Position numbers and translations under genes: made by a program | Notes under the pieces: generated by a model | Database searches by the model: none | Seen by the model: the letters and a program-made list of their open reading frames with translations, nothing else | Told to the model about the DNA's origin: nothing | DNA from: a virus | Taxonomy: Duplodnaviria > Heunggongvirae > Uroviricota > Caudoviricetes | Direction: 5' to 3' (one strand) | Length of the DNA: 5,817 nucleotides | Virus record (IMG/VR): IMGVR_UViG_2713896784_000022 | Shown here: one piece after another, positions 1 through 5,817 of the stretch | Position numbering within the stretch: the first letter of the stretch is position 1 | Layout of the letters: each line of letters opens with the position of its first letter

Positions 1-269
1 GCCACCAGCAGAGGCGGCATTGCCTTTTCGATCGCCGGTAACAGAGCCTGCATTTTTTCAACTGCATCAGGGGTGTCTTTCTCTATCCAGCGGAAAATTT
101 TCTGGGTATTGCGAGCCAGGGCTTCCGGATGGCTGTCGTCGTACAGTTCAGGAAACGTCATACCCAACTCAAAATAAGCCTGGGTTATTCCAGCTGCCGG
201 AACTTTTTCGCCATCAGGACGCGCCCAGGCATTCATCGCCATGCGGATGTGTTCATGCTTGATTTTCAT
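1..269 (-). CDS. Prophage early protein downstream of cro (YdaT/CII-like family, tentative); 3' end cut by window edge
   Basis: Minus-strand ATG at 269 preceded by a purine-rich AAGGGGGGA run (273-281). My own translation is open for all 89 codons to the window edge (MKIKHEHIRMAMNAWARPDGEKVPAAGITQAYFELGMTFPELYDDSHPEALARNTQKIFRWIEKDTPDAVEKMQALLPAIEKAMPPLLV...). Absent from the ORF track only because no stop lies inside the window. Co-directional with the cro-like gene and overlapping it by 17 nt. Family name is from memory of Rac YdaT-like proteins, not verified. Confidence 0.6.
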   Translation of the reverse strand, partial: MKIKHEHIRMAMNAWARPDGEKVPAAGITQAYFELGMTFPELYDDSHPEALARNTQKIFRWIEKDTPDAVEKMQALLPAIEKAMPPLLV

Positions 270-495
270 GAATCCCCCCTTGGTTAGAAGGCGGATTATG
301 ATCAGAATCGGGAATGACAACCGTCGGTATGTGTAACTCATATTTGAGCGCCCCGGCAGTGACTGCCTGAATTAGCAACGCCCATTTCCACGGAACGTCT
401 TCCCCCCACATGCTGACTGTGGTTTTTGACGTTCCTAGAGCGGCGGCTGTTTTAACAACTCCGCCAAAATAGCCTAATACTTCTGATTTTTTCAT
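253..495 (-). CDS. Cro/DicC-like small HTH regulator (80 aa)
   Basis: ORF-track frame 253..543 (minus), trimmed to the ATG at 495, which has a GGAG Shine-Dalgarno about 7 nt upstream (revcomp of 504-507). Product MKKSEVLGYFGGVVKTAAALGTSKTTVSMWGEDVPWKW... has the Cro/YdaS/DicC-type pattern (LG.S...VS.W). Divergent from the repressor gene, as in lambdoid immunity regions. Confidence 0.7.
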   Translation of the reverse strand: MKKSEVLGYFGGVVKTAAALGTSKTTVSMWGEDVPWKWALLIQAVTAGALKYELHIPTVVIPDSDHNPPSNQGGIHENQA

Positions 496-586
496 GAGTC
501 GCTCCATAAAACTGAACGCCAAAAGTTTAATAATCAAAACCAAAGAAAGTCAAGAAACAAAACCATCTGTGTTTTAAAATCAAAAC
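496..586. promoter_or_regulatory. Divergent immunity-region promoter/operator interval between cro-like and cI-like genes
   Basis: 91-bp AT-rich spacer between divergent starts (495 minus, 587 plus). Contains a 20-bp palindrome GTGTTTT-AAAATC-AAAACAT at 569-588 that overlaps the cI start codon, a -10-like TAAAAT at 575-580, and repeated AAAAC half-site motifs. No Shine-Dalgarno precedes ATG 587. Confidence 0.6.
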
Positions 587-1225
587 ATGAACAAGCAAAC
601 AATATCTGAACGCATAACCCAACGTATGCATGCGCTAAACTTGAAAGGCAAAGACCTTGTCAATGCCACTGGCGCATCAAAAGGCTCCGTAAGTCAATGG
701 ATGAACGGTGGAGGAGCGCCGTCCTCGCGTTACATAAGTTCACTGGCAAAGATATTGAAAGTAAACGAAAATTGGCTTCTTAATGGAGGAGAGTTAAATA
801 CAGGTGATTCGCTTGATCTATCTTTACCGCCGATAAAAACGGTTCCGCTACTATCACTTCAGCAGGCAGCAAGCTGGAGTGATTATATGAAAAATTCCTC
901 AATAACCTCTTGTGTGCAGCTTGTCGGAGAAATCCCGGCCAATACCTTTGCTGTTGTTCTAGAGAGTGACAGTATGTCGACATCTGGTGGTGGAGTTTCC
1001 ATCCCAAATGGTTCAACAGTTTTTGTTGATCCCGATCGAATCGTACAACCAGGAAATATTGTCCTTGCCTTACCCAAAGGGACCACAACGCCTGTCATTC
1101 GCAAACTGGAGATAGAAGGGCCGGATATTCTTTTAGTCCCCACGAATCCTCGCTACCCTTCAATTATGCTGGATGATCTATCTTGCATATTGGGAGTATG
1201 CTTTAAAATTCAACAAGATATTTAA
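587..1225 (+). CDS. CI-type prophage repressor: N-terminal XRE-family HTH plus C-terminal S24 (LexA-like) self-cleaving peptidase domain (212 aa)
   Basis: ORF-track 587..1225. N-terminus (ISERITQRMHALNLKGKDLVNATGASKGSVSQWMNGG) is a typical HTH_XRE segment. C-terminus carries the S24 signature serine in ESDSM and a downstream lysine (VIRKLE), consistent with the LexA/CI Ser-Lys dyad. No obvious Ala-Gly cleavage site seen in the linker. Confidence 0.85.
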   Translation: MNKQTISERITQRMHALNLKGKDLVNATGASKGSVSQWMNGGGAPSSRYISSLAKILKVNENWLLNGGELNTGDSLDLSLPPIKTVPLLSLQQAASWSDYMKNSSITSCVQLVGEIPANTFAVVLESDSMSTSGGGVSIPNGSTVFVDPDRIVQPGNIVLALPKGTTTPVIRKLEIEGPDILLVPTNPRYPSIMLDDLSCILGVCFKIQQDI

Positions 1226-1290
1226 CCAACCTCATCTATTTGATTAACTGTATGCCATCGTAGTGATGGCGTAACAGCTGCCTGCTTAAA

Positions 1291-1338
1291 ATGTTTTGAT
1301 AAAAAAACATTGACCTTAAATGTTCGTTTTTCTAAACT
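1291..1338 (+). promoter_or_regulatory. Candidate sigma70 promoter with overlapping operator palindrome upstream of the 1518/1670 operon
   Basis: Perfect palindrome ATGTTTT-GATAAA-AAAACAT at 1291-1310, abutting TTGACC (1310-1315, -35-like), a 17-nt spacer, and TAAACT (1333-1338, -10-like). An A-tract lies upstream. The half-sites are the same as those of the 569-588 palindrome. Confidence 0.4.
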
Positions 1339-1517
1339 TCATTCATTCCCTCACCCCGCCCCACAGAATGCAGGGCAATACTTCGAGTTACCAGGCAGTG
1401 GTCAGGGGTTAAGTAGCCAGCCCGAGGCGTAAGAACATGACGGCAGGGTTCAACTTTAATAACTATGCAGCAGGTTTTTGTTCCGCTACCCCGGCGTTAA
1501 GGGGAAATGAGGTCAAC

Positions 1518-1670
1518 ATGGATACGCTCAATCTTGGCAACAACGAATCTCTGGTATGTGGCGTGTTCCCCAACCAGGACGGTACGTTCACCGCGATGAC
1601 GTATACCAAAAGCAAAACGTTTAAAACTGAAGCTGGCGCGCGTCGCTGGTTAGCCAGAAACACTGACTGA
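1518..1670 (+). CDS. Small prophage protein, DUF1391-like (YdfA/YdaF-type), 50 aa; alternative start at 1437 would give 77 aa
   Basis: ORF-track 1437..1670. Internal ATG at 1518 has GAGG (1509-1512) 5 nt upstream and gives a 50-aa product (MDTLNLGNNESLVCGVFPNQDGTFTAMTYTKSKTFKTEAGARRWLARNTD), close to the ~51 aa of K-12 YdfA. First small gene after the repressor, as ydfA is after dicA. Family assignment is from memory and position, not from a search. Confidence 0.5.
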   Translation: MDTLNLGNNESLVCGVFPNQDGTFTAMTYTKSKTFKTEAGARRWLARNTD

Positions 1671-2320
1671 TGAGGTTGACGATGGAATTTAAAGATTTAC
1701 CTCCTTCAATCCAGGAGATTGCAGCACACACACTTCGTCATCGTCTGAACGAACTTGAATTGGAATCGGTAACGAAAAAAGACACTGATAATATGGCTCG
1801 TAATGTGCGCGATGCGTTTACCGGATTGTATTTCTGTGCGTCTATAAATAAACACGACTCAGAGAGTGTGGCAAATAAAATTGCAGAAACGACAGCGCAA
1901 AACATCAATACGAAACCAACGGAAGAAGAAATTGATCAGTTTGCTCATGATGCTGGTTTAAAAAACAAGAAAGAAAAATCGCCATATGCGGGGAACATGT
2001 TTGTTTATGACAATCTCATCAGAATTCGTGGCGAAATTCCGGCGGAATACCTGGCAAGAGTCCATCAGGCATTGCTTAAAAATTTGGAAACAGAATTATT
2101 TGATGGCAACACTAACGGTTTCTTCATGGTATCAGGCCTTGAGAAAGACTGGGATGCAGAAAAACGCTGGAATGTTGCTACATGGTTATTCAGTAACAGA
2201 GCCGCTGCACTGGAAGCTTCGGCATGTATTTGCGGCCTGTTCTTAACAGACCACAAATATAATCTGGATGTGTACAGTTATATTTACGCTGAACACGGTC
2301 CACTCTGGATTGACTGGTAA
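1670..2320 (+). CDS. Hypothetical protein, 216 aa (212 aa if started at ATG 1682); no recognisable domain
   Basis: ORF-track 1670..2320. ATG at 1670 overlaps the upstream stop (TGATG, translational coupling). Alternative ATG at 1682 has GAGG (1672-1675) 6 nt upstream. No transmembrane segment or motif I can name. Long uninterrupted frame with non-repetitive composition. Confidence 0.65.
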   Translation: MRLTMEFKDLPPSIQEIAAHTLRHRLNELELESVTKKDTDNMARNVRDAFTGLYFCASINKHDSESVANKIAETTAQNINTKPTEEEIDQFAHDAGLKNKKEKSPYAGNMFVYDNLIRIRGEIPAEYLARVHQALLKNLETELFDGNTNGFFMVSGLEKDWDAEKRWNVATWLFSNRAAALEASACICGLFLTDHKYNLDVYSYIYAEHGPLWIDW

Positions 2321-2530
2321 TTATAAGGAAACACCAGCAGGGCCGCGGCGACCAACAGAACGATTAAAATCAATAATGCCATTATAAAGGACATTATTTA
2401 ATTTATCGTCGAATGCTGATTCTGTGAGCCTCAACTCTGAATGAGTTTTTAATAACCCTGATTGCCTGAGTTGATTTACCAGGCATTCAATCTGTTTTTC
2501 AATAAGCGGATTTCTTTTTTTGTTTGGCAT
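2321..2530 (-). CDS. Hypothetical small protein, 69 aa (MPNKKRNPLIEKQIECLVNQLRQSGLL...)
   Basis: ORF-track 2321..2542 (minus). Second ATG at 2530 is preceded by GGAGG with 5-nt spacing (revcomp of 2536-2540), so 2530 is the likelier start. Its stop codon abuts the stop of the convergent 216-aa ORF (2318-2320 / 2321-2323). Confidence 0.5.
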   Translation of the reverse strand: MPNKKRNPLIEKQIECLVNQLRQSGLLKTHSELRLTESAFDDKLNNVLYNGIIDFNRSVGRRGPAGVSL

Positions 2531-2856
2531 TTTATCCTCCATTGAGGTTCTGGGTTAAAAATGGAGACCAACACGCTGTCACGTGTGGTCGTGCGCCGGA
2601 CACGGATAAGAATCCGGTACTGACAGTTTACTGAAAGGATATTTCCCTGAAAAGTCAGTGCATAACGCGAAAGCGTACGGCGAAGCTCTTTCCCTTAGAA
2701 GGCTTGTCGTTAGATTTCTTCGAACGTGCGCTTCCGGTTGTGGCACTCCGCGAAATGGCGCGGCGGTAAGTATGGCGGGGTTATTCCTTCCCCATTGAGG
2801 ACACCGGGTTGTCAGGTTGACCATACGCTTAAGTGACAACCCCGCTGCAACGCCCT

Positions 2857-2906
2857 NNNNNNNNNNNNNNNNNNNNNNNNNNNNNNNNNNNNNNNNNNNN
2901 NNNNNN
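2857..2906. other. Assembly gap (50 N), flanked on both sides by the identical 13-mer GCTGCAACGCCCT
   Basis: Run of 50 N at 2857-2906. The 13 nt at 2844-2856 are identical to the 13 nt at 2907-2919. Confidence 0.95.
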
Positions 2907-2930
2907 GCTGCAACGCCCTCTGTTATCAAT

Positions 2931-2988
2931 TTTCTGGTGACGTTTGGCGGTATCAGTTTTACTCCGTGGCTGCTCTGCCGCCCTTTTT
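2931..2988 (+). ncRNA. dicF: DicF-like antisense sRNA (ftsZ translation inhibitor of Qin/dic-type prophages)
   Basis: TTTCTGGTGACGTTTGGCGGTATCAGTTTTACTCCGTGGCTGCTCTGCCGCCCTTTTT matches my memory of E. coli DicF nearly base-for-base (one or two differences). It ends in a GGCGG...CCGCC stem plus U-run and sits about 170 bp upstream of a DicB-like gene, as in the K-12 dicB operon. The exact 5' end (RNase E processing site) cannot be read from sequence. Confidence 0.7.
2946..2988 (+). terminator. Rho-independent terminator forming the 3' end of DicF
   Basis: GGCGG (2946-2950) pairs with CCGCC (2978-2982), followed by C and TTTTT (2984-2988). The loop is large (27 nt), consistent with the DicF structure rather than a minimal terminator. 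Confidence 0.55.
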
Positions 2989-3157
2989 AAAGTGAATTTT
3001 GTGATGCGGTGAATGCGGCTAAGCGCACGCGGAACAGTTAAAACCAAAAACAGTGTTATGGGTGGATTCTCTGTATCCGGCGTTAATTGTTAACTGGTTA
3101 ACGTCACCTGGAGGCACCAGGCACTGCATCACAAAATTCATTGTTGAGGACGCGATA

Positions 3158-3346
3158 ATGGAAACGTTATTACCAAACGTTAATACGTCTGAAGGTTGTT
3201 TTGATATTGGTGTTCTGCTCAGTAACCGGGAGTTTACTGAAGATGCCATTAACATGAGGAAATATGAGCCTTATCTGCTCAATGATAATTCCATACTTTC
3301 CCGAATTGCTCTTCTTGAACTTGGTATTTTCGGAGAACGTCAATGA
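3158..3346 (+). CDS. dicB: DicB-like cell division inhibitor (62 aa)
   Basis: ORF-track frame 3053..3346 trimmed to ATG 3158, which has GAGGA (3145-3149) 8 nt upstream. Product METLLPNVNTSEGCFDIGVLLSNREFTEDAINMRKYEPYLLND... matches the N-terminal half of K-12 DicB as I remember it (MKTLLPNVNTSEGCFEIGV...TEDAIN.RK); the C-terminal half diverges. Same length as DicB (62 aa) and same position after dicF. Confidence 0.7.
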   Translation: METLLPNVNTSEGCFDIGVLLSNREFTEDAINMRKYEPYLLNDNSILSRIALLELGIFGERQ

Positions 3347-3531
3347 CTTCAGCATTTGCACTGATGATGACGGTTTTTCTTATAACGGGTGAATCACAGA
3401 ATGTGATTACCGGAATTTATGCCAGTAAAGAATCCTGCCTCCAGGCAAGAGACGAGCAAAAAATTTCTGGTGAATGCCTCCCGGTAAAAAAAGTATCGCT
3501 GTACCTGAATAACGAAACACCGGCTGGATAA
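3343..3531 (+). CDS. Small protein with hydrophobic N-terminal segment (62 aa); occupies the position of YdfD (Qin lysis protein)
   Basis: ORF-track 3343..3531. ATG overlaps the dicB-like stop (ATGA, coupled translation). N-terminus MTSAFALMMTVFLITG is hydrophobic (signal or membrane-anchor-like) and is followed by a polar, Cys-containing tail. YdfD identity is positional inference only. Confidence 0.55.
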   Translation: MTSAFALMMTVFLITGESQNVITGIYASKESCLQARDEQKISGECLPVKKVSLYLNNETPAG

Positions 3532-3623
3532 CCCTCCAGCCATATTAACACCATACCAACGGATTAAAAATGCCAGCAATGGCAGGGATTTGTTCACCCT
3601 TAAATCTGTAATGAGGTTTATCA

Positions 3624-4868
3624 ATGAGCACTGATAAAGAAGAATTTGCGCTATATTGCGAAGCAAAAAATGACAAAGTCAGAAAACGTCTGGGAATTAA
3701 AGGTGGTTTTTACTGGACTACAGCAAAAAAATTATCTGTTGCCATCTCCCGCTGCATTACCGCAATGGATGACAACGATTATGATGAAGACGACTTTAAA
3801 AAACCCGTTCGCGTCCATTTACCCGTTGTGAATGACCTTCCACCTGAAGGCGTGTTTGATACCGAATTCTGCAACCGATACGAAAAAGGCGGGGAAGATG
3901 GCATTACAATGGTATTTATCGCGCCCTCTCCCTCCGTGCAGGAGAAACCAGCCAGTACTGACAATACCAACGTCAACGGCGAAGACATGACGGAGATTGA
4001 GGAGAATATGCTCCTGCCGGTTTCTGGTCAGGAGCTGCCCATTCGCTGGCTTGCGCAACACGGCAGCGAAAAACCAGTAACGCACGTTGCACGGGAAGAA
4101 CTTCAGGCATTACATATAGCACGGGCGGAAGAACTGCCGGCTGTTACTGCCCTGGCCATTTCTCACAAAACAAAGCTGCTCGACCCGCTGGAGATTCGCG
4201 ACCTTCACAAACTGGTACGCGACACTGACAAAGTTTTCCCTAATCCCGGTAATTCAGACCTGGGACTGATAACTGCTTTTTTCGAGGCATACCTGGACGC
4301 TGACTACACTGATCGGGGTCTGCTGACAAAAGAGTGGATGAAAGGAAATCGTGTTTCGCGTATCACCCGTACGGCTTCCGGTGCAAATGCCGGTGGCGGG
4401 AACAAAACCGATCGCAATCCGAATTTAGTACACACCTTCGATACGCTGGATGTGGAGATTGCAGCAGCCACACTTCCGATGGATTTTAATATTTATGAAA
4501 TTCCGGGCAGCGTTTATCGTCGCGCAAAAGAAATCGTCCTGAAAAGAGAAAGTCCGTTCAAAGAATGGTCCGCAGCACTTCGCGCAACCCCGGGTATTCT
4601 GGACTATTCCCGCGCCGCTATTTTTGCACTTATCCGGAGCGCTCACCCTGAGTTTTATCACTACCCGGGACGCCTTCAGGGGTATATCAACGCCTACTTA
4701 ACGGAGACTGATCACGAGAACCCCAGCAAGGAAACTCTCACTGCTGCACGACATACACCGGAAAAAGATATCCTGGAAGAAGTTAACCGCGAACTGTCTG
4801 CTAAGCAGGAAACAGAAGAAGAAAATGATGAAGAAAAACCGCAACCATCTTGCGCAATGGCAGAATGA
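3624..4868 (+). CDS. Hypothetical acidic protein, 414 aa, unknown function (position corresponds to ydfE of the K-12 Qin locus)
   Basis: ORF-track 3624..4868. GAGG about 7 nt upstream of the ATG. Acidic clusters near the N-terminus (DDNDYDEDDF) and at the C-terminal tail (ETEEENDEEKPQP). No integrase, nuclease or NTPase motif recognised. Its stop lies 16 nt inside the integrase-remnant frame. Confidence 0.7.
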   Translation: MSTDKEEFALYCEAKNDKVRKRLGIKGGFYWTTAKKLSVAISRCITAMDDNDYDEDDFKKPVRVHLPVVNDLPPEGVFDTEFCNRYEKGGEDGITMVFIAPSPSVQEKPASTDNTNVNGEDMTEIEENMLLPVSGQELPIRWLAQHGSEKPVTHVAREELQALHIARAEELPAVTALAISHKTKLLDPLEIRDLHKLVRDTDKVFPNPGNSDLGLITAFFEAYLDADYTDRGLLTKEWMKGNRVSRITRTASGANAGGGNKTDRNPNLVHTFDTLDVEIAAATLPMDFNIYEIPGSVYRRAKEIVLKRESPFKEWSAALRATPGILDYSRAAIFALIRSAHPEFYHYPGRLQGYINAYLTETDHENPSKETLTAARHTPEKDILEEVNRELSAKQETEEENDEEKPQPSCAMAE

Positions 4869-5401
4869 TAATCAGAAGAAATCTGGCAAAAGACCGTTTT
4901 ACAGTACCAAAAACACAGGCGGGAACCAATCGTGTGATTCACCTTATTAAGCCCGCAATCGACGCTCTCCGGAGTCAGATGGCACTAACGAGACTGAGCA
5001 AAGAGCATATCATCGATGTTCACCTCAGAGAATTCGGCAGAACAGAGAAACAAAAATGTACCTTTGTTTTTCAACCTGAAGTGTCAGCGAAAGTAAAAAA
5101 TTATGGCGACCATTTTACCGTTGACTCAATAAGGCAGATGTGGGACGCAGCGGTAAAGCGTGCCGGAATCCGCCATCGCAAATCGTATCAGTCGAGACAC
5201 ACTTATGCCTGCTGGTCGTTAACAGCAGGAGCTAACCCGGCATTCATTGCAAACCAGATGGGCCATGCAGATGCGCAAATGGTGTTTCAGGTGTACGGGA
5301 AATGGATGTCAGAAAATAATAATGCGCAGGTAACGCTGTTAAATACACAGTTAAGCGAGTTTGCCCCAACCATGCCCCATAACGAAGCGATGAAAAGTTA
5401 A
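4850..5401 (+). pseudogene. Truncated tyrosine recombinase (phage integrase) C-terminal catalytic fragment
   Basis: ORF-track 4850..5401 (TTG start; in-frame stop at 4829-4831). Retains the beta-hairpin lysine context (VPKTQAGTNRVIHL), the box II motif SRHTYACWSLTAGANPAFIANQMGHADAQ, and the nucleophile tyrosine (VFQVYGKWM). The N-terminal arm/core-binding domains and the box I arginine (TGxR) are absent. The integrase frame is closed 7 codons upstream of 4850 and the preceding sequence encodes the unrelated 414-aa ORF in another frame. Confidence 0.65.
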
Positions 5402-5578
5402 TTTTTTATTTATCAATTAGTTAGATTGAATGACTCTTGAAATCCATAATTCATAGATGTTTTTTACTATTCTGTGGGTTTTTGGGTGTTTTCTAAGTTT
5501 TTTCAGATGGTTGTATTTTTTCTAAAAATCCCTAATCTCGATTTTGCTGTTTATTTGAGGCCTTTTTATGTCCCATAT

Positions 5579-5817
5579 ATGCCCCACAGATACCCCGCAG
5601 CCAAAATCAACAAAATGCCAAAAGGTTCTGTTCCTGCCCTGCAACAAGAAATGCTGCGACGTGTCAGTAAACGTTATGACGATGTAGAAGTGATCATCAA
5701 ATCCACCAGCAACGATGGCCTTTCAGTTACTCGCACCGCCGATAAAGATTCTGCAAAAACTTTTGTTCAGGAGACGCTGAAAGATACCTGGGAGTCTGCT
5801 GACGAGTGGTTTGTTCG
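5579..5817 (+). CDS. DinI-family protein (prophage-type DinI paralog), 3' end cut by window edge; alternative start at ATG 5615
   Basis: My own translation (frame not in the ORF track because no stop lies in the window): ...[67 protein letters not shown]. It aligns with E. coli DinI as I remember it (...LAGELSRRI...LSVIGATKEDKQRISEILQETWESADDWFV). Starting at 5579 makes the N-terminus the same length as DinI. Neither candidate start has a good Shine-Dalgarno. Confidence 0.7.

Follow-up and report, generated by a model that had tools for sequence, protein, structure and literature searches.

We analyzed a 414-amino-acid (aa) open reading frame (ORF) in a dicB-carrying prophage segment, contained in a 5,817-nucleotide (nt) stretch of Caudoviricetes DNA (IMG/VR record IMGVR_UViG_2713896784_000022) that is called the window throughout. 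The ORF, on the plus strand at positions 3624–4868, reads without interruption from ATG to TGA and is the longest of the window, the runner-up comprising 216 aa. An earlier note, made from the letters without database searches, had pointed out that this is the largest frame, that it comes last after the dicB-side genes and that its stop falls within a remnant integrase frame. All of this is borne out: dicF, dicB and a DUF1482 (ydfD-like) gene precede it on the same strand, and the TGA at 4866–4868 is located in integrase-derived DNA, overlapping a mechanically called, TTG-started ORF in the integrase frame at 4850–5401. A GAGG Shine-Dalgarno-like sequence was read at 3613–3616 on the plus strand, 7 nt 5' of the ATG. 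The G+C content of the ORF is 0.50–0.54 versus about 0.40–0.43 in the flanks. A promoter and terminator scan of 2900–5817 returned no promoter-like site on the plus strand inside the ORF or just 5' of it; terminator-like sites on this strand near the ORF were only weak 5-pair stems at 3571–3584 (40 nt before the ATG) and 3836–3850 (within the ORF). The 414-aa product is acidic, with an isoelectric point of 5.06 and 71 Asp/Glu versus 50 Lys/Arg residues. Acidic runs are found at residues 49–57 (DDNDYDEDD), 111–140 and 381–410. The acidity noticed before is thus real, while its placement at both ends holds only roughly, the strongest N-side patch being internal.

Leaving aside a run of N, the window matches Escherichia coli O157:H7 strain TW14359 at 100% identity. 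A query across the end of the ORF split cleanly in other genomes: window 4560–4868 led to genes annotated as 'exonuclease' and window 4856–5160 to integrase genes. An intact syntenic prophage was found in E. coli strain 13E0780 (locus L004) beside rspB, which is the Qin attachment site. Its gene order is dicF, dicB, DUF1482 gene, a gene for an 820-aa exonuclease, xis and a 431-aa int, and six upstream proteins (Cro-like, LexA-family, DUF1391, a 70-aa hypothetical protein, DicB and DUF1482) carry the same accessions in 13E0780 and TW14359. Window 2907–4868 aligns with L004 5348–7311 at 99.8% DNA identity and window 4856–5453 with L004 9621–10219 at 99.3%; overall the two prophages are 99.3–99.9% identical outside one gap of 2,321 bp. 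With the same upstream genes and the 99.8% DNA identity, the 820-aa exonuclease of 13E0780 (WP_000102122.1) is the intact form of the gene to which the ORF belongs.

We determined the position of the gap to the base. On the exonuclease side exact identity runs through window 4864 (L004 7308) and on the integrase side it reaches back to 4864 (L004 9629), leaving an overlap of 1 nt. The junction AATGGCAGAATGA is located at 4856–4868 on the plus strand, with the crossover at base 4864 and 2,321 bp gone. Exonuclease codon 413 is joined out of frame to integrase codon 253/254, and translation therefore ends after one further codon; in the exonuclease frame the junction reads ...GCA ATG GCA GA/A TGA, the slash marking the join. 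The ORF consists of 413 parental codons and a Glu codon that spans the junction, and it is closed by a TGA from out-of-frame integrase DNA; its parental part corresponds to the front of the 820-aa protein of 13E0780 less one Glu codon. It represents the 5' 50% of an 820-codon gene, so the suspicion that the gene is intact was mistaken. The proposal that the DNA was rearranged where the integrase lost its 5' half stands as far as rearrangement is concerned, in the form of a single 2,321-bp deletion that cuts both genes and makes the stop codon.

Since both genes are shortened relative to widespread full-length homologues, we infer that the O157:H7 lineage lost the segment, rather than that 13E0780 gained it by insertion. 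At the parental sites the exonuclease gene reads AATGGCAGATGA and the integrase gene AATGGAACAATGA, and the junction sequence is an imperfect likeness of each. Because the two sites resemble each other only imperfectly, the event would have been an illegitimate and not a homologous recombination between sites with an imperfect 13-nt similarity.

The intact 820-aa protein shows what was lost. Its RecE-like N-terminal region spans about 620 aa and is followed by a linker and a C-terminal DEDDh domain. The protein matches PF06630 and is 62% identical to residues 50–592 of RecE, diverging afterwards. Its linker is acidic and Q-rich with a zinc-ribbon-like CxxC...CxxC motif, CTACGQTGGGNCPDCG. The DEDDh 3'-5' exonuclease domain was assigned to PF16473 (Rv2179c-like; residues 639–810, E 1.5e-67; PF00929 matches weakly), its DxE, D and HxxxxD motifs are visible as MIDLET, NFDN and HNALDD, and it stands where K-12 RecE carries the PD-(D/E)XK domain PF12684. 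Residues 415–820 of WP_000102122.1, comprising the linker with its motif and the DEDDh domain, are missing from the window. A Pfam scan of the 414-aa ORF accordingly gave no match to a DEDD domain, which lies entirely in the deleted 2,321 bp. Since everything from residue 415 on was encoded in the deleted DNA, the ORF encodes no nuclease domain. The intact gene occupies L004 6065–8527, and a literature search found no paper on the architecture combining a RecE N-terminal region with a DEDDh domain.

The same deletion took xis and integrase codons 1–253. What remains of the tyrosine recombinase gene are codons 254–431 of 431 at 4865–5401 on the plus strand. This remnant matches PF00589 and is 51% identical to residues 245–411 of IntR. 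It is without the N-terminal 253 residues, including the DNA-binding N-terminus and the box-I arginine; the latter (VYTGIRPGE) lay 19 residues upstream of the junction. With xis and the box-I-bearing integrase N-terminus gone, the prophage should be unable to excise. We also observed that the deletion made an ATGA overlap, in which the TGA of the ORF at 4866–4868 overlaps an ATG at 4865–4867 corresponding to the native integrase Met254. Termination-reinitiation at this site could in principle give a 178-aa C-terminal integrase fragment, presumably inactive since it would be without the box-I arginine.

Taken together, we read the ORF as what the 2,321-bp deletion left of the 5' part of an exonuclease gene with RecE-N-terminal/DEDDh architecture, the gene belonging to a Qin-type (dicB-carrying) lambdoid prophage in the O157:H7 lineage. 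We assign this reading a probability of about 0.92. The ORF is shorter than the intact syntenic orthologue, its breakpoint is mapped and its catalytic domain is lost, as expected of a pseudogene or deletion remnant. The prophage would have started from the gene order still seen in 13E0780. Illegitimate recombination would then have removed the nuclease half of the exonuclease, xis and the front of the integrase, leaving a prophage unable to excise, and the deletion would have been inherited clonally since. Some points weigh against this. The frame is open over 414 codons, is preceded by a good ribosome-binding site and yields a confident predicted fold (mean predicted local distance difference test score, pLDDT, 86.8). 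The direction of the event, deletion here or insertion in the relative, is deduced from gene lengths. In addition, O157:H7 genomes are too alike for a test of purifying selection.

Family assignment of the 414-aa product is straightforward, although the earlier note could attach no domain to it and listed its function as unknown. Residues 57–189 (3792–4190, plus strand) match profile positions 48–203 of 203 of Pfam PF06630, Exonuc_VIII, at E 1.6e-34; the full name of the family is 'Enterobacterial exodeoxyribonuclease VIII'. NCBIfam NF007259 (exodeoxyribonuclease VIII) aligns ORF residues 1–414 with profile positions 1–409 of 877 at E 9.3e-186. At 619.6 bits the match stays under the curated equivalog cut-off of 1,269; a value about half of the cut-off is expected because the ORF is half a protein. 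PHROG 607 is matched over profile positions 1–402 of 883 (E 1e-194). The ORF is therefore the N-terminal region of a RecE-family (exonuclease VIII) protein. A convincing match to a known family with an ordinary role in phages was an outcome that the earlier note had named as refuting its view, and this is what the searches show.

We compared the ORF with RecE of the K-12 Rac prophage, an 866-aa protein. The two share PF06630 and a homologous N-terminal region, and their genes occupy the same place in the early-left operon, 5' of xis-int. BLASTP aligned ORF residues 58–413 with RecE residues 50–397 at 57% identity, rising above 90% across ORF residues 117–255 and reaching the last residues of the ORF (EEKPQPS); ORF residues 1–57 do not align to RecE. 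At the DNA level blastn found 88.5% identity between ORF nt 339–792 (3962–4415, plus strand) and recE nt 306–759. The only other match was a 59-nt stretch at ORF nt 1188–1240 (81%) and the remainder was unaligned, so the gene is mosaic. In contrast to RecE, which carries a PD-(D/E)XK domain (PF12684/DUF3799) at about residues 564/606–866, neither the ORF nor its intact parent possesses this domain; the ORF, which gave no match to PF12684, stops at the equivalent of RecE residue 397. A further difference concerns recT, which follows recE in Rac: no RecT-like ORF is present in the window, and none follows the exonuclease gene in the intact relative. A 2023 review describes the N-terminal region of RecE as 'of unknown function' (PMC11611040).

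The ORF had also been suspected to be the intact counterpart of K-12 ydfE. Besides being truncated, it is not similar in sequence to YdfE (best BLASTP E = 2.1). The K-12 Qin locus gave no blastn match to window 3263–4855, though dicF-dicB and intQ do match. What the two have in common is the gene slot: ydfE (b1577) lies after dicB and ydfD and before the integrase gene, at the rspB attachment site. The ORF and ydfE are also both 5' portions of large DEDDh exonuclease genes, and each goes with a damaged integrase gene, in K-12 the intQ pseudogene. Over its first 256 aa, YdfE shares 84% identity with the N-terminus of an 823-aa exonuclease allele from strain 2013C_3277 (locus L005). This allele is near 90% identical to the 13E0780 protein from about residue 475 to the end, DEDDh domain included, and has a different N-terminal module that does not match PF06630. 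The ORF and ydfE thus belong to alleles with unrelated N-terminal modules, and they were cut differently, ydfE by an IS2 remnant after codon 256 and the ORF by the 2,321-bp deletion. By these comparisons ydfE is a positional counterpart of the ORF only and not a sequence homologue, and neither is intact. Since ydfE is truncated by an IS2 remnant and not by the O157:H7 deletion, the exo-xis-int module, as read from the two loci, decayed independently and in parallel in K-12 (L002 6079–8709) and O157:H7 (window 3624–5401).

We also assessed what the remaining polypeptide might do. Its family is narrow: among 1.84 billion representatives, no more than 222 clusters (50% identity) matched at E ≤0.001. 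PF06630 was found in 42 of 49 long relatives, a PD-(D/E)XK domain in 22, a DEDD domain in 10 and RecT in 2. The module also occurs in sequenced temperate phages, among them Gifsy-2, SPN3UB, mEp237, HK225 and several Stx phages, annotated as exonuclease VIII or RecE. AlphaFold2 with a 50-sequence alignment gave a model of the 414-aa ORF with a mean pLDDT of 86.8 and a predicted template modeling score of 0.46; the single-sequence model was unusable (mean pLDDT 37). Predicted folded units comprise residues 1–103, 124–250 and about 259–400, with residues 104–123 and 252–258 as disordered linkers and a disordered tail. Neither Foldseek against the PDB (best E 0.89) nor a fold search of BFVD (best E 0.12) returned anything informative for this model. 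An exopolyphosphatase at E 0.2 in a PDB sequence search was regarded as a chance match. The fragment may therefore fold, and nothing points to an activity. Because the Shine-Dalgarno sequence and the start codon are kept, the ORF is probably still translatable upon derepression of the dicB operon, which would give a 46.5-kDa acidic protein of three predicted domains without nuclease activity.

We consider it unlikely that this truncated product is still functional, with the RecE-type N-terminal module serving recombination as a scaffold or as a regulator, or interfering with full-length paralogues from other prophages of the same genome. Its translation start and the three confidently predicted units are compatible with such a role, and the occurrence of one module on PD-(D/E)XK, DEDD and RecT domains suggests an autonomous unit. 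Moreover, while the nuclease domain of RecE alone substitutes genetically, full-length RecE improves linear-linear recombination beyond what the nuclease domain achieves (PMC11611040). Further copies of the gene exist in O157 genomes, with 2–3 matching places per record. Against this, no natural stand-alone module was found, most of the relatives listed being 500–1,090 aa long, and PGAP calls the ORF a pseudogene. The breakpoint also misses the boundary between module and nuclease, falling inside the N-terminal region shared with RecE, whose end lies near residue 620. Most of the homologous proteins listed were copies of the same E. coli gene cut off at contig ends; the best stand-alone candidate (P0143, 343 aa) is likewise a gene cut by a contig end and was discarded as evidence. 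Comparably long odds apply to the more elaborate idea that enterobacterial phages combine the RecE-type N-terminal region, as a portable autonomous module, with PD-(D/E)XK, DEDDh or RecT domains, and that the O157:H7 fragment would be a 'module-only' allele active upon induction of the dicB operon, for example by binding a host or phage partner or by poisoning full-length paralogues.

The earlier note had further considered accessory or anti-phage defense cargo acquired at the prophage end, which we regard as very improbable. The position of the ORF near this end and its G+C content above that of the flanks would fit such cargo. However, the homology to the resident exonuclease gene of the intact relative is unbroken, persisting at 99.8% DNA identity up to the junction and hence to the last codon but one. 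PADLOC defense models yielded no family at E ≤0.01 for the ORF or its intact parent. In both prophages compared, Rac and that of 13E0780, the slot between the kil/dicB-type genes and xis-int is filled by a recombination exonuclease.

The reading as an exonuclease remnant is in line with the distribution and annotation of the junction. A 121-nt query spanning it (window 4805–4925) was searched in 5,426 complete E. coli genomes and found in 225, in 223 of them at ≥99% identity. Among the 60 matches listed, genome size is mostly 5.3–5.7 Mb and all records named by serotype are O157 or O157:H7, about two-fifths being without a serotype label. The same junction, with the same flank to its right, occurs in NJS001, an isolate from a pig. 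The exact 414-aa protein is present on at least 1,000 public contigs. The earlier note had named an assembly chimera as an outcome that would refute its view, and an obvious assembly gap elsewhere in the window (50 N at 2857–2906) might lend color to a chimera or sequencing artefact where exonuclease and integrase meet. Such an artefact can be dismissed given the identical junction in 225 complete, independently assembled genomes and the abundance of the exact protein on contigs.

The EDL933 entry for this exact protein reads 'putative exonuclease VIII within CP-933O; partial'. PGAP treats two pieces of the TW14359 locus as pseudogenes: the opening 802 nt of the ORF carry the label 'RecE family exodeoxyribonuclease, incomplete, missing C-terminus' and 4850–5401 the label 'tyrosine-type recombinase/integrase, missing N-terminus'; the pseudogene flag on the ORF is also present in NJS001. 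The feature is already known in this sense, as public annotation has it as a partial exonuclease VIII or RecE-family pseudogene, and it represents routine decay of a cryptic prophage. Literature searches on ydfE, the CP-933O exonuclease and Rv2179c in combination with prophage found no functional study of the gene. In EC4115 (O157:H7; NC_011353.1 2111364–2111474) the junction query matched at 96.5% identity, with 111 bases facing 115 of the query. The difference points to an indel in GAA-rich sequence immediately 5' of the junction, which might change the C-terminus of the ORF in that strain.

Upstream of the ORF, the DicF small RNA gene is located at 2932–2983 (plus strand; Rfam RF00039, 75 bits versus a gathering score of 48) and dicB at 3158–3346 (plus strand; PF05358, E 2.7e-36), annotated as dicB by PGAP in the identical TW14359 locus. 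The DUF1482 gene directly 5' of the ORF occupies 3343–3531 (plus strand; PF07358, E 2.9e-15, and PGAP annotation). A run of 50 N at 2857–2906, within 2844–2919, is flanked on both sides by the 13-mer GCTGCAACGCCCT and ends 25 nt 5' of dicF. Since TW14359 has this 13-mer once, with both flanks overlapping on it (window 1–2856 corresponding to L001 2441–5296 and 2907–5817 to L001 5284–8194), the N run and the duplicated 13-mer look like a scaffold-gap artefact and not like masked sequence.

Further upstream, the dicA slot (587–1225, plus strand) holds an ORF for a 212-aa CI/LexA-like repressor with HTH_3 and Peptidase_S24 matches; K-12 DicA measures 135 aa by its coordinates. PGAP calls only the C-terminal 112 aa of this repressor ('LexA family protein', WP_001416688.1) in TW14359, 13E0780 and NJS001, so its start site may be under-called there. 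Between the DUF1391 gene and dicF, where K-12 carries ydfB and ydfC, we noted a 216-aa ORF at 1670–2320 (plus strand; PHROG 2151, unknown function) and a convergent 73-aa ORF at 2321–2542 (minus strand; PHROG 4274, unknown function). Neither has a Pfam, NCBIfam or PADLOC match.

At the other end, likeness to the intact Qin-site prophage stops at window 5453, about 50 bp past the integrase stop codon. Window 5454–5817 contains the start of a DinI-like gene, followed in TW14359 and NJS001 by IS256 fragments and ISEc8, with nleG7 beyond in TW14359. In 13E0780 rspB takes the position of the DinI-like gene. Given this difference in the right flank, the right end of the prophage adjoins another mobile region in O157:H7.

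In summary, loss of xis and of the integrase N-terminus would explain a non-excising prophage at this site in O157:H7; in parallel, K-12 Qin lost the same module in a separate event associated with IS2. The exact junction provides a clean lineage marker of O157:H7-type genomes, present in 225 of 5,426 complete ones. The intact parent indicates that the RecE N-terminal region is also found on DEDDh exonucleases without a RecT partner. This sharing lies outside the window and is already readable from domain databases; it bears on the question of what purpose the region serves.

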